This document shows positions 20,494 through 55,531 of a stretch of 64,000 bases of DNA, one piece after another; positions within the stretch are counted from its first letter, which is position 1; every line of letters begins with the position of its first letter. Under the pieces are notes generated by a model. That model did no database searches. It saw only the letters and a list, made by a program, of their open reading frames with translations, and was not told where the DNA came from. The DNA comes from Escherichia phage SUSP2. The stretch lies in the sequence record KT454806. One strand, 5' to 3'. Position numbers and translations under genes: made by a program.

Positions 20494-20500
20494 TTATTAC

Positions 20501-26642: not shown

Positions 26643-26972
26643 TTAATCTGACAGCCTTAAGTTAAAGTTAACACCAAGTTTTTCACAAGCTTTCAACATG
26701 TATTCAAGGGTAATCTTTCCAGTACCGTTGACAATGTTGGAAACACGACTTTGAGAGATATCACAAATCTTTGCGACTTGTGCCTGAGAAAGTTTTCTTT
26801 TCTCAATTTCTTTTTCAAAACGGAATGCAACGAACTCTCTCATTTCGTCTACATCCATTGGACAGATATAACTTGCCATCTCATACTCTCTATCAGCTTC
26901 CCACTTATCTTGTGGAGCATAAGGGTCAAAGACTTCATTCATCTTTCTTCCTCCGTTTTCTGGAAGTGTCAA
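26643..26972 (-). CDS. XRE-family helix-turn-helix transcriptional regulator
   Basis: C-terminal HTH LSQAQVAKICDISQSRVSNIVNG; real start probably an internal Met. Confidence 0.6.
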   Translation of the reverse strand: MTLPENGGRKMNEVFDPYAPQDKWEADREYEMASYICPMDVDEMREFVAFRFEKEIEKRKLSQAQVAKICDISQSRVSNIVNGTGKITLEYMLKACEKLGVNFNLRLSD

Positions 26973-27559: not shown

Positions 27560-27588
27560 AAAATAAGCTATAACACCTGACTTGTCAA
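27560..27588 (-). promoter_or_regulatory. Sigma70-like promoter (TTGACA-N17-TATTTT) inside a 13-bp inverted repeat
   Basis: -35 TTGACA = reverse complement of 27583-27588, -10 TATTTT = reverse complement of 27560-27565; inverted repeat arms AAATAAGCTATAA at 27561-27573 and 27595-27607. Confidence 0.55.
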
Positions 27589-27643: not shown

Positions 27644-27697
27644 ACCTCACCGCACCCTACTACACCCCCACCTTACCGAACCGCGCCATACCAAACA
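27644..27697 (+). repeat. Phased pentamer array A1, about 11 ACCNN units
   Basis: ACC trinucleotide recurs every 5 nt (27644, 27649, 27654, ...), one 6-nt step; C-rich, G-poor on + strand. Confidence 0.8.
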
Positions 27698-27734
27698 TCA
27701 CTTAAAAACCCTTTTCAAAGACTCTTAAGTGATG
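27696..27734 (+). other. Conserved hairpin motif H1 (CATCACTTAA-19 nt-TTAAGTGATG)
   Basis: Perfect 10-bp inverted repeat with 19-nt loop; near-identical copy at 29210-29248. Confidence 0.7.
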
Positions 27735-27765
27735 TAATCGAATTTTAATGTAGCTCCGATTAACT

Positions 27766-27816
27766 ACCCATACCTCACCTCACCTAACCTCACATTACCA
27801 AACCGCATACTACCTC
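27766..27816 (+). repeat. Phased pentamer array A2, about 10 ACCNN units
   Basis: ACC at 5-nt phase from 27772; preceded by conserved leader TAGCTCCGATTAACTACCC. Confidence 0.75.
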
Positions 27817-27844
27817 ATTAAAAGACCCTGTTTAAAGGCCTTTT

Positions 27845-29021: not shown

Positions 29022-29081
29022 ACCTTACCAAACCCTACCAGACCGTACCATGCCCAACCCTACTACACCAGACCTTACCTC
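29022..29081 (+). repeat. Phased pentamer array B1, 12 ACCNN units
   Basis: ACC (two degenerate: GCC, ACT) at 29022+5k for k=0..11; preceded by leader GGCTACTACCATCCACCC. Confidence 0.8.
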
Positions 29082-29118
29082 ATTAAAAGACCCTCTTAAA
29101 GACCTTTTAAAAAGGTAA

Positions 29119-29142
29119 GTCTCATTTTCATGTAGCTGAGAC
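29119..29142 (-). other. Internal hairpin in operon leader (possible attenuator)
   Basis: On - strand: GTCTCA-12 nt-TGAGAC followed 5 nt later by TTTTT. Confidence 0.35.
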
Positions 29143-29153
29143 TAACTACCCAT

Positions 29154-29210
29154 ACCAAACCTTACAATACCTAGCCTTACCACACCGAACCAAACCACAC
29201 CCAACCGAAC
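29154..29210 (+). repeat. Phased pentamer array B2, 12 ACCNN units
   Basis: ACC-like trinucleotide at 29154+5k; preceded by leader TGTAGCTGAGACTAACTACCC. Confidence 0.8.
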
Positions 29211-29248
29211 ATCACTTAAAAACCCTTTTCAAAGACCCTTAAGTGATG
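29210..29248 (+). other. Conserved hairpin motif H1, second copy
   Basis: CATCACTTAA-19 nt-TTAAGTGATG; differs from 27696-27734 copy at one loop position. Confidence 0.7.
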
Positions 29249-29278
29249 CTGGTGAGTACCCGTTGGTTTATGCTGCTC

Positions 29279-31441: not shown

Positions 31442-31492
31442 AAACCCTCCTATACAAGATACAGTATAAGGTACTCTTCCATGAGCACCTTG

Positions 31493-32020
31493 TCAACTTA
31501 GTTTTGCAAACTCTCCGTGAAGTTTCATAGAAGCTTCACAGTAAGCTTTATGGGCTTCTTCAGGGGTGTCATAGTAGCCTAATGACATCTTTTTACCTTT
31601 ATAGCTTATTTGCGCAACCCACCTACCAGACTTCTTCTTCAGGCTTACACCCTTATAGCCTGATTTATTGGTGGATAGTTTGCTTTTATTCCAAGCACTT
31701 TGGCAGTCGTCTGCTTCTCTTAAGTTTACAATCCTGTTATCAAGGGAGTCCCCATTACTATGGTCAATAACACCTTTAGGTAACCTACCATACACGTACA
31801 GCCATGCGAGTCTGTGCGCTTTATGTGCTTTCTTGTCAAAATAGATAGTAATCTGCTTATGACCAGTTGAGTCAATCTGGAGGCTTCCCGCTACCTGTCC
31901 TGCGTACTGGCTATTAAAAACTTTAACAGCCTTTGAGTCGCCCTCTCTACGAAGCCAAGTAAAGACCCCTATTTCGGGGTCATAGTGTAGTAGTTCCTTT
32001 AAACGTTCTTGTGTAATCAT
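31493..32020 (-). CDS. HNH homing endonuclease with AP2 DNA-binding domain
   Basis: HNH motif HSNGDSLDNRIVNLR; AP2-like GYKGVS...GRWVAQI...LGYYDTPEEAHKAY; immediately downstream of DNA polymerase gene. Confidence 0.7.
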   Translation of the reverse strand: MITQERLKELLHYDPEIGVFTWLRREGDSKAVKVFNSQYAGQVAGSLQIDSTGHKQITIYFDKKAHKAHRLAWLYVYGRLPKGVIDHSNGDSLDNRIVNLREADDCQSAWNKSKLSTNKSGYKGVSLKKKSGRWVAQISYKGKKMSLGYYDTPEEAHKAYCEASMKLHGEFAKLS

Positions 32021-32030
32021 TTTGTCACCA

Positions 32031-34730
32031 TTAATGCACTTCCAACCACGATTTACCGACCTTACCAGTACCAGTTACCAGTGTTTTACTCTTTAGTCCT
32101 AAGTTCTTAGAGGCTTGCCCGTAATACCAATCAGTGACAGCCTTCACCTCTGCCGTCATACTTTCTGGACATTCCCAACTTGTCTCATCGTGATAGGAGC
32201 ACAATAAACGAGCACCTATAGCTGGTTTACGACCGTTCAACTTCATCAAACCTTCGTCAATCATACGACGGCAAGCAAGGTTAATTGCCTCGTTCTGAAT
32301 CTGGCTTTCCGAACCCATCAGTAAGTAGTTCAATAGTTTGTGTGGAGATTTACACCACAACCATGCTCCAGCCACCTTGACAAAACCACCTTTAGAGATT
32401 GCAGCAGTCTTACCAAATACTTCTTCAAGTGCTTTCTTAGTTGCTTTAAAGTCAGCTTCCAAGTTGTCTAACAGTTTCTTAATCTTCGGCAAACGCACAA
32501 AGTAAGTCTGTTTAGTTAATGCACCTTCCTGAGTAGTCGCAGCTTTAATCGTCTTAGCAAACTTCTCATCACCAGCACCGAACAGTAACGCATAGATACC
32601 ATTCTTAGCTTTCTTACGACCTTTGCTAATTTCGTGAAGAAGATTTTCATCCTGAGTCATACGACAAGTCAAGATATCTTGTTCTTCATTCAAGCTGAAG
32701 TAGATACTGTTCAGTGTATGTGCATCAGTACCTGAGTAAACTACGTACAAGTCATTTTCAGAGTCGTAATGCAGATACTTATCAACTTCTGGATTCAGGT
32801 ATTCGTCAAAGTGTTTGCAGTAGTATCTGCCATCTTCCTGACGGATAAACTCAATCTCTTCTTTACCCTGAGTTACTGCTTTGGTGAACTCTTTGTCACC
32901 CATAAAGTTGCACAGTAAAACAAGTTGCGCTGAATTCATGTCAACGGAGACTACGTTTGTACCTTCTTCACAAATCCAGACTGCCCTCATTGGTTCACCG
33001 TAAACAGCAGCCCCAGAAGGTACGTTCACGATTCCGTATTGTGTCATACGTCCAGTTGAAGTGCCAAACACCATTGCACCAGCACTCAAACGACCATCTG
33101 GACGAATCTGGTTTAACCAACCTTTTTCATCATCCTTTGAGTTCTCGATAGTTCTGCGTCGGTGCATCAAAGTATAGTACTTCGCAATCTTCTGTCCAAG
33201 TTCACCTTCAATCGTATCGTAAGATGATTCAGTCAGTTTCGGTGAAGTCCGAATCAAGCAAGGTTCAAGCAAATCTGTGTACTTCTTAACAGACCAGTTG
33301 TGTTCGATGTACTGTACACCTTCATGCTCAACATAGTTCAATCCGCAACGGTCTACCATCTCTTGCCATTTCGGATGTTTACGAATCATCTTCTTGTTGT
33401 CTTTGAAGCGACAAACCTTCACCGGACGACCATCAGAATCTTTCTTGTAGTTCCAGTCATCAGGAATCCAGCCAAGAGTTTTCAGATAATCCTTCACAAC
33501 CGCAACCTGAGTCATACGCGACACTTCGAACTCAATCGGTGTATAAGGTGCATCAATCAAACCTGTGTAACGACTTGACTCAAGTTCAAAGTGATTTACT
33601 ACGTGGTTGTTGTAGTACTTCACAGTCTTCACAGTCTTAACTGGTTTCCAGTCTTTGCACTTCTTATCAATCGCAGCATTCAACTCATTACAAACTGCAC
33701 GAGCATCTTTCATTGCAACGAAACCTTCTTTGTACTCTTCTCCAGTAACCGTGTTAGTCGGAGTGTAGCAGTTACGCTTCTCAATGTTGAAAATCTTGGT
33801 AGTCGGTTTACCAAAAGGCTTGATAGCGTAAGTCTGCATCTCACCATTGCGAACCTGCTGACGGAACTTAGTTTTTGGATACTTAGTGATACGCTTCAAA
33901 CCATCTGCTTCACCAAATGTCTCAACATACTCGTTCCAAGCCCTTGCAAACTCTTCACCAGTGACTTTGCCTTTCGTCTTAATAGTTGGTGGCAGATGAG
34001 GCTCAACTTCAGCAGCTAATTCATCAGTCAGTCTGTCAAGTTCTTTGACATGGAACTGCATAAGTTCAATATCAGCTTTCCAACCGTTAATAGCTTGCTG
34101 ACTCATCCAGAAAGATGTTTCTTTAGCTCGCATGTAGGTTTCGTAAGTGTCTACACCACACTTCTTCAGTTTCAGGTATTCATTATCAAGAGCACGTTTA
34201 GCTTTGGCGTTGATTCGAATATCCTCAACAACACGGTTCAGAATGTCAGCATTCCAGACACCCCACTCTTCAATTTCTGGTTTACGAACACCAACACGAG
34301 CACCCCATGCAGCCAAACCATGAGCACCTTTGTAACCTTTCGGTGTAGGTCTATCCATCCACTGAACACGAGACTGGATAAGAGAATCCTGAAAGAAGTC
34401 TCCCCAAGGTTTACACTTCGGATTGTCAAAGTTCCATAAGTCCGGTGCAATGTGATTGAACACCCACCAGTCATAGCCAAGACCGTTATGAATGCAGAGA
34501 CGTTTTGCCTTAAGAGCAAACTCCACACCTTCACGAAGACCACCTTTGATGTACTTAGTACACTTGTGACCAAGGATAGGTTCATCGGTGAAGACCCACA
34601 CAGCAGGTTCGTCACTGTCATCTTTGTAATCTGCAAATGCCATTACGTGTGCTTTTGTGAACTCAAGGAGTAACCCATCAGTTTCGGTATCACCTACCAA
34701 GTGCAAGTTTTCAAAATCTACGTTTTCCAT
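32031..34730 (-). CDS. DNA polymerase, family A, with 3'-5' exonuclease domain
   Basis: Exo I motif VGDTETDGL; Pol A motif B-like KKAKNGIYALLFGAG; motif C YHDE. Confidence 0.8.
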   Translation of the reverse strand: MENVDFENLHLVGDTETDGLLLEFTKAHVMAFADYKDDSDEPAVWVFTDEPILGHKCTKYIKGGLREGVEFALKAKRLCIHNGLGYDWWVFNHIAPDLWNFDNPKCKPWGDFFQDSLIQSRVQWMDRPTPKGYKGAHGLAAWGARVGVRKPEIEEWGVWNADILNRVVEDIRINAKAKRALDNEYLKLKKCGVDTYETYMRAKETSFWMSQQAINGWKADIELMQFHVKELDRLTDELAAEVEPHLPPTIKTKGKVTGEEFARAWNEYVETFGEADGLKRITKYPKTKFRQQVRNGEMQTYAIKPFGKPTTKIFNIEKRNCYTPTNTVTGEEYKEGFVAMKDARAVCNELNAAIDKKCKDWKPVKTVKTVKYYNNHVVNHFELESSRYTGLIDAPYTPIEFEVSRMTQVAVVKDYLKTLGWIPDDWNYKKDSDGRPVKVCRFKDNKKMIRKHPKWQEMVDRCGLNYVEHEGVQYIEHNWSVKKYTDLLEPCLIRTSPKLTESSYDTIEGELGQKIAKYYTLMHRRRTIENSKDDEKGWLNQIRPDGRLSAGAMVFGTSTGRMTQYGIVNVPSGAAVYGEPMRAVWICEEGTNVVSVDMNSAQLVLLCNFMGDKEFTKAVTQGKEEIEFIRQEDGRYYCKHFDEYLNPEVDKYLHYDSENDLYVVYSGTDAHTLNSIYFSLNEEQDILTCRMTQDENLLHEISKGRKKAKNGIYALLFGAGDEKFAKTIKAATTQEGALTKQTYFVRLPKIKKLLDNLEADFKATKKALEEVFGKTAAISKGGFVKVAGAWLWCKSPHKLLNYLLMGSESQIQNEAINLACRRMIDEGLMKLNGRKPAIGARLLCSYHDETSWECPESMTAEVKAVTDWYYGQASKNLGLKSKTLVTGTGKVGKSWLEVH

Positions 34731-34987
34731 TTTTACTCCCTCTCAAAATCATTGACTCAATACATTACTGCAAAAAGTTTCAAAAAGCAAGTTGACAATT
34801 CACTTGACAAGGTGTTAATCTTTGCGAAGTGGGTTTTAACTTAAAAGACTCCCTTTACAGATTAACTATACAGTTTCTTTAAAACCCTTAAAAGATTTTT
34901 AATAGCTTTTAAGAAGCTTTAAAGTTATACGTATAGAATACGTAAAGAAAACAGATTAAGTTTAATAGGTACTTAAAAGAGGGCATT
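34731..34987. promoter_or_regulatory. Divergent control region between DNA polymerase and rightward early genes
   Basis: Tandem TTGACA boxes (34792-34797, 34804-34809), palindromic cluster TATACGTATAGAATACGTA (34926-34944), AT-rich. Confidence 0.4.
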
Positions 34988-35410
34988 ATGCAGAGAATGT
35001 TTGTTCACCCAGACATAGCTGACTTCATGAGAGCTTTAAAAAAGTTGGAAGAACTTGACATTGCTGCTCAAAAGGAATACGCTTACCATCATCGTCGAAT
35101 GGTTGATGTTCAACATGAGATTGAACTCTCCGAAGGCTACGATGAAAGAATGAAATGTTCAGTCTTTGAGCATATGAAGGAGATATCGGCTGAGAGGCGT
35201 AAAGCAAAAGATACACTCTTCTTGATAGATTCTTTAAAAAAGAAGTTGCAAAACGGAACAGACTTAGATAACCTAGCAACACTGATTAGCGATGTAGAAA
35301 GTTCATGGGATAGACATTACTTCCCAAGGTCTGAAAAAGTTCTTGACTTTTCCTCTACAGAGAGCTTAAAGTTATCACGACAAACACTTAACAAAATGAG
35401 AGAGAATTAA
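34988..35410 (+). CDS. Hypothetical protein
   Basis: 140-aa ORF. Confidence 0.45.
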   Translation: MQRMFVHPDIADFMRALKKLEELDIAAQKEYAYHHRRMVDVQHEIELSEGYDERMKCSVFEHMKEISAERRKAKDTLFLIDSLKKKLQNGTDLDNLATLISDVESSWDRHYFPRSEKVLDFSSTESLKLSRQTLNKMREN

Positions 35411-35411
35411 T

Positions 35412-36215
35412 ATGACTACTGTAAATGAAATGCTGGCCTCTAAAGGTATCGATAGCAACTTTATGCTGAACACTATTGAAAGCCTTGCTATCGTTATGCG
35501 TAGCAACACCTTCAGTTCACAAGTAATTCCTGAATCTTATCAGGTTAACGCAGAGATTTCTGATGAGTCAGCATTTCGCTCACAGGTTGAACTGCTTCTG
35601 AATAACCGTCAACTGGCTCTGGCTTCAGTGGCTGTTGGTGTAGATGCCTTGGCTGGTTATGTCTTTGACAAGATGCAAACTGGCGACTACAAAGTTCTCT
35701 CTGAAGAAGAGAAAGAAGCACTGCTTGAGTTCACTGAAGACGACACCTTCAACCTGATTATCAACTCAATTGCAAGCGTGATGGCTGTACTTGAGAAACG
35801 TGTTACAGAAAAACTCCCACACTATGAAAAACTTGATTGGGGTTTTGCAGATATCTTTGAGCGTTCACAGGAAATGGTGAAGCTGACTAAAGAGCAACTT
35901 CAAGAGGTTGTTGACAATGAAGCTGAACGTGGAATTGATGAGATTCAGGTCAAACTGACCGCTCTGGTTCCTTCAATCATCACAGTGATGAGTATTCACG
36001 CTCTGTTCGAAGTTGCAGGTATGATTGATGCACCTATTGAGTTTGTGGAGCAGATTGCTGGTAATGTAAGTGGTGAAGCACTGCGTGAAGTGATTATGCA
36101 AACTGGTGCGGCAGTTCTTCAAGACAAGATTGCCATCCACTTCGGTGATGAATTTGTAGCAACTATTCAGGCTCTGTCTGAAAAAGAAAAGCTTGATTCT
36201 ACACAAATTCACTAA
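35412..36215 (+). CDS. Hypothetical acidic protein
   Basis: 267-aa ORF, coupled. Confidence 0.45.
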   Translation: MTTVNEMLASKGIDSNFMLNTIESLAIVMRSNTFSSQVIPESYQVNAEISDESAFRSQVELLLNNRQLALASVAVGVDALAGYVFDKMQTGDYKVLSEEEKEALLEFTEDDTFNLIINSIASVMAVLEKRVTEKLPHYEKLDWGFADIFERSQEMVKLTKEQLQEVVDNEAERGIDEIQVKLTALVPSIITVMSIHALFEVAGMIDAPIEFVEQIAGNVSGEALREVIMQTGAAVLQDKIAIHFGDEFVATIQALSEKEKLDSTQIH

Positions 36216-36227
36216 TAGAATTGTTTT

Positions 36228-36257
36228 CCCAAAGCCTCCTTAATTGGGGGCTTTTTC
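36228..36257 (+). terminator. Rho-independent terminator
   Basis: AAAGCC...GGGGCTTT stem followed by TTTTTCG. Confidence 0.5.
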
Positions 36258-36275
36258 GTATGGAGATAAAGGTAT

Positions 36276-40546: not shown

Positions 40547-40578
40547 CAAAGCCCTGTACTTAGTATGGGGCTTTTTCG
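40547..40578 (+). terminator. Rho-independent terminator
   Basis: AAAGCCC...GGGGCTTT followed by TTTTCG. Confidence 0.5.
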
Positions 40579-50023: not shown

Positions 50024-50033
50024 ATAGTTGACA

Positions 50034-50073
50034 AGGTGGTGTAGGTCTTGATAGGCTTGCATCACCTTTTTTA
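50034..50073 (+). terminator. Terminator after nrdD
   Basis: AGGTGGTG...CATCACCT stem (one G-T pair) followed by TTTTTT. Confidence 0.45.
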
Positions 50074-50178
50074 TTGGATGTTGGATATGGCAGAGAACAT
50101 CATTGGTTTATTCATCGGTTCTGTCTTACTAGGGTTCTTTCTAGGACTCCTTTATTGTGAATTAAGAGGAAAGTTAAA

Positions 50179-50577
50179 ATGTTTAAAATCTCCAAAGCGT
50201 TAATGGAAGTGCTGAAAGAATGCACGTTAGATGATGGAAAGTGTGAGAAAGAGCATCGTCGTGGCTCAAGCTTTTACATCACCAGTGAACTCACAATCAC
50301 TCAAGAGCTAATTGACTCAATCAAAGAGGATGAAAACTTAGTAGTTCCTGATTGGTTACTTGATAAAATTATTATAATCACAGGTACTTGGACTGATGAT
50401 TGGGGAACCGAGATTGGTGATATCTCGTTCTACAGCTACATTCAGAAGATGAATCCTAAGTATGTGGCCTTGATGACTGCTGCACAAGATAGTAAAATCT
50501 TGCAAGACTTTATTTACAAGCACTGTCCAGAATATGTCATGTCTTATGAAAAGATTGAAGTGGAGGTAGTAGAATGA
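50179..50577 (+). CDS. Hypothetical protein between nrdD and nrdG
   Basis: 132-aa ORF. Confidence 0.4.
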   Translation: MFKISKALMEVLKECTLDDGKCEKEHRRGSSFYITSELTITQELIDSIKEDENLVVPDWLLDKIIIITGTWTDDWGTEIGDISFYSYIQKMNPKYVALMTAAQDSKILQDFIYKHCPEYVMSYEKIEVEVVE

Positions 50578-51059
50578 ATTTTATGGAAATTCGAGAGTTC
50601 GATACAGCTAATGGTGAAGGTGCTCGTGTAAGTATCTTTGTAGCTGGTTGCAAGCATCACTGTGAAGGTTGTTTCAACAAAGAATCTTGGAAATTCAATG
50701 CAGGTAAAGAGTTTACTGGTTTTGATATGGCTGATATCTTAGCTATGTTGAAAGATGATGGTATAGAAGGTTTGTCAGTGTTAGGTGGCGAACCTTTAGA
50801 AGAACGAAACATTGACACTGTAGCGTATATCTGCAAGACTGTTAAAGAGCATTATCCAGAGAAATCTATCTGGCTTTGGACAGGTTTCCAACTTCATCAA
50901 AAAATTCACCATGAAGTGATGAAATATGTTGACGTGGTGATTGATGGTAAGTATGATGCTTCTAAACCAACGAACAAACCGTATCGTGGTTCTGATAACC
51001 AAAACCTTTGGAGAAAAGAATATGGGTGGCAAGGTGATTGTCAATGGAGAGCTGAGTAA
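50574..51059 (+). CDS. nrdG: Anaerobic ribonucleotide reductase activating protein (radical SAM)
   Basis: CxxxCxxC motif (CKHHCEGC) near N-terminus; coupled downstream of nrdD region. Confidence 0.75.
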   Translation: MNFMEIREFDTANGEGARVSIFVAGCKHHCEGCFNKESWKFNAGKEFTGFDMADILAMLKDDGIEGLSVLGGEPLEERNIDTVAYICKTVKEHYPEKSIWLWTGFQLHQKIHHEVMKYVDVVIDGKYDASKPTNKPYRGSDNQNLWRKEYGWQGDCQWRAE

Positions 51060-51613: not shown

Positions 51614-51925
51614 ATGAGCAAGATTTATAACACTCGTAAGCTTCAGATTTTAATGCTTTGCCAGTTCATGTATGACAAACACAATGCACACTATTGTGGT
51701 ACAGGCTTTTTAGCTTTTGGTGGTGAGTATACACCATTCAAAAAGGCTGTTGAGATGTATAATTCACAGAGTGAATCTGATAAAGAATTGCATCAACTGA
51801 AGTTGACTTATGACAAAAAGCACAAGAAGATTGTGTGTACAAACAACCTTGTCAAGCCATCTGAATCACTTAAGACAGATGTAAGCCAAGAAGACTTTAT
51901 GAGAGTCTTGAAAGAGCTTCAGTAA
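51614..51925 (+). CDS. Hypothetical protein
   Basis: 103-aa ORF followed by terminator. Confidence 0.4.
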   Translation: MSKIYNTRKLQILMLCQFMYDKHNAHYCGTGFLAFGGEYTPFKKAVEMYNSQSESDKELHQLKLTYDKKHKKIVCTNNLVKPSESLKTDVSQEDFMRVLKELQ

Positions 51926-53704: not shown

Positions 53705-55531
53705 ATGTCTAAATCAATCTATGCAGTTCCAGCAGGTCTTAATGCAGATGCTTACAAAGCTGGTCACATCTACCAGTATCCAAGTGCAACTCAGTATCTG
53801 ATGCTGAACCTTACACCTCGTGGTGATAAGTGGTTCAACACTCCTTTGGAGACTGATGGTGTAGTTGCTTTTGGTATCCAACGTTTTGTGAAAGATTATC
53901 TGGTAGACCACTGGAATGCAACGTTCTTTGAACGTGATAAGAAAGAAGCCGTTGATGAAATCTTAGAAATCATGAATGGTGTACTTGGTGCAGATGCCAT
54001 TGGTCGCCAACATTGGGAAGAACTTCACGACTTAGGTTATCTGCCAGTGGCAGTATACTCTGTTGAAGAAGGTACAATTGTCCCTATGCGTGTTCCAATG
54101 ATTATCTTCAAAAATACCGTTGAAGGTTTCCATTGGGTAGCTGGTTATCTGGAAGATGCTTTCTCTGCTGAAATCTGGAAAGCTTGTACCATTGCAACTA
54201 TTGCATTACATTACAAACGTATCTGTAAAGGTTGGGCTGACAAGACTTGTGACAATGACTTCCATCTGCCTTGGCAGTGTCACGACTTTGCAATGCGTGG
54301 TATGTCTGGTTTCACAGACGATGCCTTCAATGCTGTAGGCCATCTTACCAGCTTCAAAGGTACTGATAGCTTCCCTGCTGTGTATACTGCTAAACGTGCA
54401 TATGGACAGTTCATGACTGTAAGTGATATTGGTAACTCTGTTCCAGCAACTGAACACTCTGTGATGTGTGCAAACATTGCATGGAATATGAAAGACCTGT
54501 CAGAAGATGATATTCACTCACAGTATATTATGCAGTCTGATAGCTTACTGGATGCTAAACGTTGGCGTGGTGAGGTTAAAACCTTTGAACATCTTTTGGT
54601 AGATGTTTATCCAACTGGTATTGCAAGTGTTGTTTCTGATACTTACAACTTCTGGCGCACAGTTACAGAGGTTCTCCCAGAACTTCGTGAAGTAATCCTG
54701 AAACGAGATGGAAAACTGGTAATCCGTCCAGACTCTGGTGACCCTGTACACATTGTTACTGGCTATCGTGCAATTGAGTGGGAAAATGCTAAAAGTATGT
54801 ATTACAAACATATGTCAACCATTTCCCCTAACAACACTTATCTGCTTGATGCAATCTTGAATTGTAGCATGTCAGATATGGGTTATGGTTTCTCTGCTTG
54901 GTTAATCTCTGAAGGTTATGAGTTAGTTGTTGATGCAGAAGACTTTAACGTTGCTGATACAGTTAATCTGAAAGAAACTTACAAGACTGGTAAAGTTGTT
55001 GTTAAACGTATGCTGACAGCAGAAATTGATGGTGCTATCAAGACTCTATACAATATCTTTGGTGGAACTGTAAACGCTAAAGGCTACAAAGTTCTTGATG
55101 AGCACATTGGCTTAATCTACGGTGATTCTATCACTCTGGAACGTGCTGAAGAGATTCTTAGTCGTCTTGCTGAAAAGGGCTTTGCAAGTTCTAACGTTGT
55201 TTTTGGTGTTGGTTCATACACTTACCAGTACCTGACTCGTGATACCTTTGCATTCGCTGTCAAAGCAACTCTTGCACAGATAGATGGGGAAGAAATCATG
55301 CTGGCAAAAGACCCTAAAACTGATAGTGGTCTGAAGAAGTCTGCTTTTGGCGGTGTAGTCCCTATGTGGGATGGTGATAAGCTGGAAGCTGTAGATGGTT
55401 TTGGTTTTGCAGAATTTGAAAGCGTACTAGATAACCCTCAGTGTGCTCTGAAGTTGGTATTCTGTGACTCTCAGCCATATGGCTACGTTAATCTTCGTGA
55501 TGTACGAAATGTTATTGACAGACAGCTTTAA
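53705..55531 (+). CDS. Nicotinamide phosphoribosyltransferase family protein (NAMPT-like; possible Namat)
   Basis: FKGTD...YG...GNSVPATEHS motif matching the NAMPT active-site region; ATG at 53705. Confidence 0.75.
   Translation: MSKSIYAVPAGLNADAYKAGHIYQYPSATQYLMLNLTPRGDKWFNTPLETDGVVAFGIQRFVKDYLVDHWNATFFERDKKEAVDEILEIMNGVLGADAIGRQHWEELHDLGYLPVAVYSVEEGTIVPMRVPMIIFKNTVEGFHWVAGYLEDAFSAEIWKACTIATIALHYKRICKGWADKTCDNDFHLPWQCHDFAMRGMSGFTDDAFNAVGHLTSFKGTDSFPAVYTAKRAYGQFMTVSDIGNSVPATEHSVMCANIAWNMKDLSEDDIHSQYIMQSDSLLDAKRWRGEVKTFEHLLVDVYPTGIASVVSDTYNFWRTVTEVLPELREVILKRDGKLVIRPDSGDPVHIVTGYRAIEWENAKSMYYKHMSTISPNNTYLLDAILNCSMSDMGYGFSAWLISEGYELVVDAEDFNVADTVNLKETYKTGKVVVKRMLTAEIDGAIKTLYNIFGGTVNAKGYKVLDEHIGLIYGDSITLERAEEILSRLAEKGFASSNVVFGVGSYTYQYLTRDTFAFAVKATLAQIDGEEIMLAKDPKTDSGLKKSAFGGVVPMWDGDKLEAVDGFGFAEFESVLDNPQCALKLVFCDSQPYGYVNLRDVRNVIDRQL

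Follow-up and report, generated by a model that had tools for sequence, protein, structure and literature searches.

How are the early replication genes of Felix O1-like phages switched on, and what is held in the noncoding DNA from which they are read in opposite directions? We analyzed the gap of exactly 257 bp at positions 34731-34987 of a 64,000-nucleotide stretch of Escherichia phage SUSP2 (record KT454806; the whole stretch is called the window here), which divides the leftward DNA polymerase gene from the rightward replication operon and is one of two points in the genome at which transcription diverges. By its sequence, the window is that of a phiSUSP1-like phage (Ounavirinae, Suspvirus) in the Felix O1-like group, with 99% identity to NC_028808.2 (phiSUSP1) over the 3 kb surrounding the gap and 100% over the 257-bp gap itself. 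In Felix O1, the polymerase gene (gene 96) was found by reverse transcription PCR to be transcribed within 5 min of infection (PMC3185647). Divergent early promoters were assumed to lie in the interval that separates gene 96 from gene 97, the replication genes being early, and no promoter-like sequence was reported from the gap (Whichard et al. 2010, PMC3185647). The location of the early promoters was left open in that genome paper, as were the temporal control of transcription and terminator read-through, both of which stand there as open questions (PMC3185647). Since the polymerase gene is the first of its unit and is transcribed by 5 min, a promoter usable on entry is expected in the gap.

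In this phage group the gap serves as the main early control region, and it is very probably, on sequence comparison, the two-way start site of the early DNA-replication genes. Tentatively, and at a little less than an even chance, we favor its interpretation as a divergent sigma-70 early promoter hub combined with a protein-binding control platform. Two host sigma-70 promoters, with predicted starts and strong comparative evidence, would stand back-to-back around a shared A-tract, P_R firing right into the operon of a 140-aa gene, a deoxynucleoside monophosphate (dNMP) kinase and a primase-helicase, and P_L firing left into the DNA polymerase gene. The ~165 bp from P_R to the first start codon may then be a DNA-level protein-binding platform, not a passive spacer. 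This platform would consist of ~8-10 pseudo-palindromic 8-mers of the form CT-N4-AG, mostly CTTAAAAG, CTTTACAG or CTTTAAAG, about one helical turn apart; the array would begin ~12 bp after the predicted start, and a unique 17-bp palindrome would overlap the -10-like TATAGAAT. A phage or host protein coating the array could throttle or time transcription into the replication operon from P_R and from any weak internal promoter. The divergent promoter part of this interpretation, with the -10 assignments corrected as described below, appears well supported; the function of the leader, whether regulatory platform, origin or RNA element, is one that we infer. The elements concerned are as follows.

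34782-34821, plus strand: predicted rightward promoter P_R, with an A-tract at 34782-34786, box 1 TTGACA at 34792-34797, an 18-bp spacer and an extended -10 TGtTAATCT at 34813-34821; predicted start ~34828
34804-34809, plus strand: box 2, a second TTGACA within the P_R spacer, at about -24 to -19
34762-34790, minus strand: candidate leftward promoter P_L, with a -35 TTGCTT at 34790-34785, a 17-bp spacer and a -10 TAATGT at 34767-34762; predicted start ~34755, leader ~25 nt
34822-34987, plus strand: untranslated, AT-rich leader that precedes the first gene of the rightward operon, ~160 nt long for a start at ~34828, with no open reading frame

For comparison, 29 related loci were collected from IMG/VR, of which 19 distinct gaps were aligned; an alignment-based IMG/VR scan for more distant loci contributed just one locus. 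The initial annotation had recorded two TTGACA boxes 12 bp apart, neither with a convincing -10. Both boxes are present, at 34792-34797 and 34804-34809 (12 bp from start to start), and the judgment on the -10 stands for box 2 but falls for box 1. The latter matches the -35 consensus at 6/6 positions, is invariant in 19 relatives, and is followed after 18 bp by TAATCT (34816-34821) with TGt in front. This hexamer was missed by a simple scanner because it matches TATAAT at only 3/6 positions; in relatives it becomes only TAGTCT, so that TAnnnT is kept. The distance from box 1 to the -10 is 17-18 bp in all seven paralogous or orthologous copies of the promoter, and the more distant Yersinia phage P778 and Kolesnikvirus have a single TTGACA-17-TAnnnT. 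The window has 19 matches to TTGACA-N16-18-TAnnnT, 34792-34821 among them, where 4.37 +/- 1.8 would be expected; in the SUSP1 genome ~20 intergenic sites have the form A-tract, TTGACA, N16-18, TAnnnT. The recurrence of TTGACAAGG at other promoters, also claimed earlier, is borne out by enrichment: the window has five copies where 1.04 would be expected, and none of 100 shuffles has as many. A TAnnnT lies 17-18 bp downstream of three of the four other copies (31488, minus strand; 39600, plus; 50028, plus), and none follows the copy at 51847 on the minus strand.

The assignment of P_L, whose hexamers match weakly, rests mainly on conservation, and it is best treated as a candidate. Its -35 TTGCTT is invariant in the 19 relatives with a 3/6 consensus match, and the 17-bp spacer is free of indels. 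At the candidate -10, only TAATGT, TAGGGT, TAAGGT and TAGTGT occur (TAnnGT, with T1, A2 and T6 kept), which is the substitution pattern expected of a -10, and a Hafnia phage has TTGCAA-17-TACTAT at the equivalent place. The -35 elements of P_L and P_R are 1 bp apart, so the suggestion of overlapping divergent promoters can be kept as to the divergent pair, which has comparative evidence and the early polymerase gene of Felix O1 behind it, but not as to overlap, the two being back-to-back. A further TTGACT at 34752-34757 (plus strand) was rejected as a promoter: it lacks a -10, and it is not conserved, since relatives have TTAACC in its place. A by-eye look at the gap gave no convincing match to the sigma-54, sigma-32, sigma-24 or sigma-28 consensus or to integration host factor (IHF), Fis, Lrp, ArcA or Pho boxes. 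AGCTTTA-N12-TAGAAT differs from the T4 MotA box by one mismatch in the box; we know of no MotA or AsiA homologue.

Back-to-back divergent sigma-70 promoters form a familiar class in phage early regions, and the gap shares with it a perfect or near-consensus -35, spacers of 17-18 bp, a TAnnnT -10, an upstream A-tract, and two promoters that face apart and serve early genes. It departs from the class in having a second perfect TTGACA, under selection, in the rightward spacer, and in the 165-bp conserved untranslated leader that follows. Unlike lambda, where a repressor-operator set overlaps the core promoters, the gap is without one. The orthologous Felix O1 96-97 gap is 87.8% identical over 252 of the 257 bp (AF320576.1, 63472-63723); what differs here is that -35 and -10 elements are proposed in both directions, together with box 2, the repeat array and the palindrome.

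What, then, is box 2? Its presence had been taken to indicate tandem promoters. That is not supported: a TAnnnT stands 16-18 bp downstream of box 2 in none of the seven copies, which have AAGTGG, ACACTT, GGGGGT and similar sequences there. Box 2 floats: over the seven copies its distance is 10-13 bp to box 1 and 4-7 bp to the -10. Since the distance from box 1 to the -10 is always 17-18 bp and box 2 floats without a -10 of its own, box 1 is the working -35. Box 2 is nonetheless invariant in the 19 relatives, with the 5 nt between the boxes varying freely, and is on this comparison a separately selected element that probably gives sigma region 4 or a regulator another place to dock. The tandem-TTGACA design is found at three promoters per genome, the others being at 71587 and 82409 of NC_028808.2; it occurs also at the Felix O1 orthologues of these (11269 and 21515) and in the Hafnia phage polymerase gap. 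The two other promoters carry copies of the ACTTAAAGA(C/T)TC type at comparable distances (ACTTAAAAGACTC at 82.4 kb, CTTAAAAGATTC at 71.6 kb).

A second -35-like hexamer, TTGACT, is present in the lambdoid late promoter PR', where it is used by sigma region 4 in the Q-loaded paused complex. The likeness to P_R lies in a strong sigma-70 promoter with an extra -35-like hexamer downstream of the true -35, in conserved promoter-proximal elements, and in the long operon with internal terminators that comes after. In contrast to PR', whose hexamer is 1 bp upstream of a pause-inducing -10-like element, box 2 lies 4-7 bp upstream of the -10; no Q homologue is known here, and there are three such promoters per genome. 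As an observation on the two other promoters of the class, those at 71587 and 82409 of NC_028808.2 have CTTAAAAGA(C/T)TC downstream and are both conserved in Felix O1, and that at 82409 heads the other divergent control region.

Conservation of the gap extends well past the promoters. Its length is 256-259 bp across all close relatives, and the whole gap is kept in all 257 Felixounavirus, Mooglevirus and Suspvirus records, with 84-88% identity in 249 and annotation in none; likewise, none of the 257 phage records annotates box 2, the repeat array or the palindrome. Column identity (mean pairwise, among 11 diverse genomes) was as follows.

34785-34833, promoter core: 0.93
34834-34987, leader: 0.88
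34731-34784, left part of the gap: 0.75
Polymerase gene, third codon positions: 0.70
140-aa gene, third codon positions: 0.70
Gene after the 140-aa gene, third codon positions: 0.55

A control gap (36216-36275) has an identity of 0.70, and its conservation is confined to a terminator hairpin. That the core and leader exceed both the third codon positions and the control gap points to ~200 bp of noncoding DNA under strong purifying selection, far beyond the needs of a promoter alone.

The leader is 72% A+T as compared to 60% for the genome, which agrees with the AT-rich tracts recorded earlier, and it holds an array of short repeats with the consensus CTWWAHAG.

34840-34979, plus strand: CTWWAHAG array; full copies CTTAAAAG at 34840, CTTTACAG at 34853, CTATACAG at 34866, CTTAAAAG at 34887, CTTTTAAG (inverted) at 34906, CTTTAAAG at 34917 and CTTAAAAG at 34972; degenerate copies CTTTAAAA at 34877 and TTTAATAG at 34898 and 34961
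34928-34944, no strand: 7-3-7 inverted repeat TACGTAT-AGA-ATACGTA, which includes the -10-like TATAGAAT at 34932-34939

On both strands together there are 8 matches to CTWWAHAG in the leader, against 0.45 +/- 0.77 in dinucleotide shuffles (0 of 2000 reach 8). The copies are mostly in the sense orientation, ~11-13 bp apart; autocorrelation of the repeats has its peaks at lags 11 and 13 (z=3.15 and z=2.26), and Tandem Repeats Finder returned three period-11 rows. In relatives the outer CT and AG are fixed and the inner bases drift, as in CTTAAAAG, CTTAATAG and CTTAACAG. The words favor noncoding DNA, which makes up 11% of the genome but has 18 of the 26 CTTAAAAG copies and 51% of the CTWWWWAG copies, as compared to 5-27% for control words. 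The Yersinia, Hafnia and Kolesnikvirus leaders gave no BLAST match to the gap. They nevertheless have the layout seen here: 15-18 nt separate the -10 from the first copy, the ones after it are spaced 11-14 nt apart, and each leader has 4-7 copies in the sense orientation where 0.1-0.25 would be expected. Loop-less palindromic versions, AACTGTACAGTT and TTCTATAGAA, are present in the leaders of Hafnia and Kolesnikvirus, and these suit a DNA site better than an RNA hairpin.

These counts bear on a plainer account of the gap, namely an ordinary promoter pair with AT-rich filler, in which conservation would reflect close kinship and the repeats would be a by-product of AT-richness and strong ribosome-binding-site contexts. 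It is true that AT-rich sequence yields many chance palindromes and that some CTTAAAAG or CTTTTAAG copies directly coincide with a ribosome-binding site or a stop codon (record positions 20495, 31007 and 31238). However, in the same genomes the leader stands at 0.88 where synonymous sites of adjacent genes stand at 0.70, 0.70 and 0.55 and the control gap at 0.70, dinucleotide-preserving shuffles yield 0.45 repeats and not 8, and the array recurs in leaders of distant genera that have no BLAST-alignable sequence. We disfavor this account and regard it as very improbable.

Arrays of short repeats are bound by small dimeric repressors at promoters or centromere-like sites in several systems, among them omega of pSM19035, ParR-parC and ParG. 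As in those arrays, there are many units of 7-11 bp, direct and inverted, at a spacing of about one helical turn or less, both at a promoter and again at a separate noncoding locus. The differences are that spacing here is irregular (8-13 bp), that this is a lytic phage without a partition system, and that no ribbon-helix-helix or ParR-like protein was identified, and that binding is putative. The separate noncoding locus is an observation made beyond the window. At 72.92-74.61 kb of NC_028808.2, a 1.7-kb unannotated gap between convergent transcription units is packed with period 10-12 arrays of CTTGTTAGA, ATGTTAAGAG, CTATATAG and CTTAAAAG in both orientations. Nowhere in the genome is the duplex less stable than in this locus, and cumulative GC skew reaches its maximum (74674) just past the right end of the locus. 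A gap homologous to it is present at 12.3-13.9 kb of Felix O1. The locus could be an origin, a terminus, a packaging site or a noncoding RNA locus.

The self-complementary cluster reported in the initial annotation is real, with its core in the inverted repeat at 34928-34944. All positions of this repeat pair in the 19 sequences (100%), where slid registers pair in 14-49% of cells. In two pairs both partners have changed, one pair going from A-T to T-A and the other from C-G to T-A, and there are no one-sided changes. The repeat is unique in that no other copy with up to three mismatches was found in SUSP1 noncoding DNA. In the paralogous leader at 82.4 kb, a 7-bp inverted repeat of another sequence, AGATATC-N6-GATATCT, is found about as far from the start codon. 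A 31-nt imperfect palindrome returned by a repeat tool at 34863-34927 was rejected as a conserved structure (69% pairing, no covariation, and changes in relatives that break pairs); it appears to be a by-product of the near-palindromic repeats.

Could a protein of the phage read this palindrome? The repeat at 34928-34944 is of the ~14-18 bp size of a Cro/CI-type operator, and a candidate binder is encoded in the leftward operon.

26646-26942, minus strand: Cro/CI-type helix-turn-helix protein (HTH_3; gp035)

The HTH_3 protein is found in the same 257 records that keep an alignable gap. The earlier suggestion of regulator sites is thus made plausible by the repeat array, the compensatory palindrome and the conservation well above synonymous sites.

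A rival to the DNA platform is an element that works as RNA. The 160-nt 5' leader, with its sense CUWWAHAG repeats and small hairpin, would be bound by a protein, ribosome or ribonuclease and would control mRNA stability, translation of the first gene or read-through of terminators (processive antitermination). The repeats are strongly sense-biased, at 39:7 over 8 leaders, the last of them abuts the Shine-Dalgarno sequence, the pairing of the 7-bp hairpin survives two compensatory changes, and the paralogous 82.4-kb leader has its own 7-bp hairpin at a similar distance from the start codon. A need for read-through can also be argued: transcription from P_R meets a conserved terminator hairpin (36236-36250) before the genes for dNMP kinase and primase-helicase, and no TTGACA-type promoter follows it, so that read-through would be needed for these genes, and read-through is on the list of open questions of Whichard et al. 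(PMC3185647). Against this, the leader folds no better than shuffles (minimum free energy z=-0.79), Rfam returned only a chance-level mir-155 match (E=0.33; 20 bits, where the gathering score is 56), and RNAalifold gave a covariation term of only -0.88, with 3 of 58 pairs covarying and negligible covariation outside the small hairpin; on the fold z-score, the Rfam result and the covariation term, the leader was rejected as a structured RNA. As for a nut-type site, there is no rrn-type boxA within three mismatches in 34731-34987, nor any rrn or lambda boxA (GCTCTTTAACAA or CGCTCTTA), and the hairpin loop is 3 nt long, unlike the boxB pentaloop. The spacing of about one helical turn and the loop-less palindromes of other genera point to DNA, and the motif occurs in both orientations at the 73-kb locus. 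An RNA-level role is one that we consider unlikely.

As a separate observation on the rightward operon, conserved intrinsic-terminator hairpins are present at 36236-36250 and 40548-40574, both on the plus strand. No TTGACA-type promoter lies between either of them and the next essential genes, so those genes depend on read-through.

Does replication begin here as well? In this explanation, the gap would be a transcription-primed origin: P_R would transcribe into an easily melted AT-rich element, its RNA would serve as an R-loop or as the primer for a T7-like replisome, and the phased repeats would aid unwinding or helicase loading. The gap lies exactly between the polymerase and primase-helicase operons, its length and sequence are very tightly conserved, and a strong promoter is directed into a 165-bp untranslated stretch that is 72% A+T. 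Of all 100-bp duplex windows in the 90.7-kb genome, the second least stable falls in the leader (top 0.05%). The cumulative GC skew reaches its global minimum at record position 34897, which is 34887 in the window, and its maximum, at 74674, beside the other repeat-rich noncoding locus. The polymerase is of family A, and the primase-helicase has Toprim and DnaB_C domains like T7 gp4.

The primary origin of T7 has the tandem promoters 1.1A and 1.1B and an AT-rich region, and oriF and oriG of T4 have a middle promoter and a downstream unwinding element. The arrangement of those origins, a promoter and then a DNA unwinding element, is found in P_R and the leader: here too a promoter reads into an AT-rich, easily melted noncoding stretch next to replication genes, and this phage has a T7-like polymerase and primase-helicase. 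The gap differs from them in that host RNA polymerase would do the transcribing and origin activity is putative, in that its tandem element is two -35 boxes and not two promoters, and in that the design is found at two other promoters.

The three features that fit an origin, namely a duplex of low stability, the minimum of GC skew and a location between the operons, are all confounded or indirect. The switch of GC skew coincides with the switch of gene orientation, and skew at third codon positions is weak (-0.05 to +0.10), so GC skew is mostly a coding-strand effect. The same promoter-plus-repeat design is found at two other promoters with ordinary short leaders, and the 1.7-kb SUSP1 locus at 73-74.6 kb has more repeats and even lower stability. 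The features of iteron- or DnaA-type origins were not found in the gap: it has no DnaA box, the sole near match (one mismatch) lying on the start codon and such matches not being enriched, and long iterons are absent, the repeats being 8-mers. There is no recognizable initiator gene. We regard an origin as improbable, if slightly less so than an RNA-level element.

Returning to the promoter hub with a protein-binding platform, several points weigh against it. Both -10 hexamers are weak, with TAATCT of P_R and TAATGT of P_L at 3/6 each. The lag-11 signal of the repeats is modest once 34 lags are corrected for, and the strong sense bias of the repeats would be explained no less well by a function at the RNA level. 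An origin would account no less well for the low duplex stability and the GC-skew minimum. The pairing of the HTH_3 protein with the palindrome is unsupported: its recognition helix ISQSRVSNI is unchanged in phage Moogle, where the palindrome is changed. Cro/CI-type proteins usually have several operators, and the palindrome is unique in the genome. Our literature searches turned up no footprint or binding protein for the gap, and on transcription starts, promoters and origins of Ounavirinae Whichard et al. 2010 was all that they gave.

We found no description of the extra, conserved -35 box or of the subfamily-wide CT-N4-AG array in the searchable literature. A more far-reaching and speculative idea, which we hold to be doubtful, is that CT-N4-AG is the recognition code of an undiscovered Ounavirinae DNA-binding protein which marks the three tandem-TTGACA promoters and the 1.7-kb locus. 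Such a protein might time early transcription and set the start of replication, the gap being at the GC-skew minimum, and box 2 might let a phage-remodelled RNA polymerase reuse the promoters later. Felix O1-like phages are widely used in the typing of Salmonella and E. coli, in biocontrol and in therapy, and SUSP1 is now a model phage (CRISPRi-ART screens, VIPR). For these phages the analysis offers two predicted promoters with base-level coordinates and an extra -35 box that falls outside ordinary promoter models, and the subfamily-wide repeat motif should permit pull-down of the missing regulator or initiator. If the leader were an origin, it would be the first identified in the subfamily within the literature searched.

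The genes served by the two promoters, and their translation signals as read from the sequence, are as follows.

32031-34730, minus strand: DNA polymerase gene, 899-aa open reading frame, so named in NC_028808.2
34728-34742, minus strand: Shine-Dalgarno sequence GAGGGAG (34742-34736) and start codon (34730-34728) of the DNA polymerase gene
34978-34990, plus strand: Shine-Dalgarno sequence AGAGGG (34978-34983) and ATG (34988-34990) of the 140-aa gene
34988-35410, plus strand: first gene of the rightward operon, 140-aa open reading frame

The Shine-Dalgarno and start region of the polymerase gene, ACTCCCTCT, is unchanged across the 19 relatives; in front of the 140-aa gene, AGAGG is unchanged in the aligned relatives, and the last CTWWAHAG copy abuts this Shine-Dalgarno sequence. 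Besides the dNMP kinase and the primase-helicase, the operon headed by the 140-aa gene has an exonuclease and ribonucleotide reductases. The 140-aa protein is conserved and is modelled by AlphaFold as an all-helical hairpin (pLDDT 74). It matches no Pfam family, belongs to a PHROG of unknown function, and gave no PDB fold match with E below 0.2; as a candidate regulator or initiator it was set aside, the domain, PHROG and fold searches being uninformative. The second gene of the early replication operon (35412-36215, plus strand) carries the annotation “minor tail protein” (phrog_4251), a name that looks doubtful.

Some further observations concern the window as a whole. It is mosaic with respect to SUSP1 (NC_028808.2), with 98% identity over 1-27.8 kb, 94% over 30.8-50.0 kb and 75-83% past 51.3 kb. 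Coordinate offsets indicate that ~0.5-0.6 kb of SUSP1 sequence is absent from the window at each of two places, and the two absent segments match a homing endonuclease gene (50057-50620) and one HNH endonuclease gene (54234-54725). Promoters with TTGACAAGGTG at 31488-31496 (minus strand) and 50028-50036 (plus strand) directly follow HNH or homing endonuclease insertion points in this phage or in SUSP1, which suggests that TTGACAAGGTG promoter cassettes travel with endonuclease insertions or compensate for them. Finally, on the minus strand, tandem YNNGG pentamer runs of 5-9 units (~27695-27820 and ~29062-29250) stand on either side of the genes at 28.0-29.06 kb and lie downstream of the TTGACA promoters at 27583 and 29301, both on the minus strand. 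These runs match the VIPR locus and vrRNAs of phage SUSP1 (bioRxiv 10.64898/2026.04.26.720920), and at the variable NN positions of the runs the window and the SUSP1 record are not the same.

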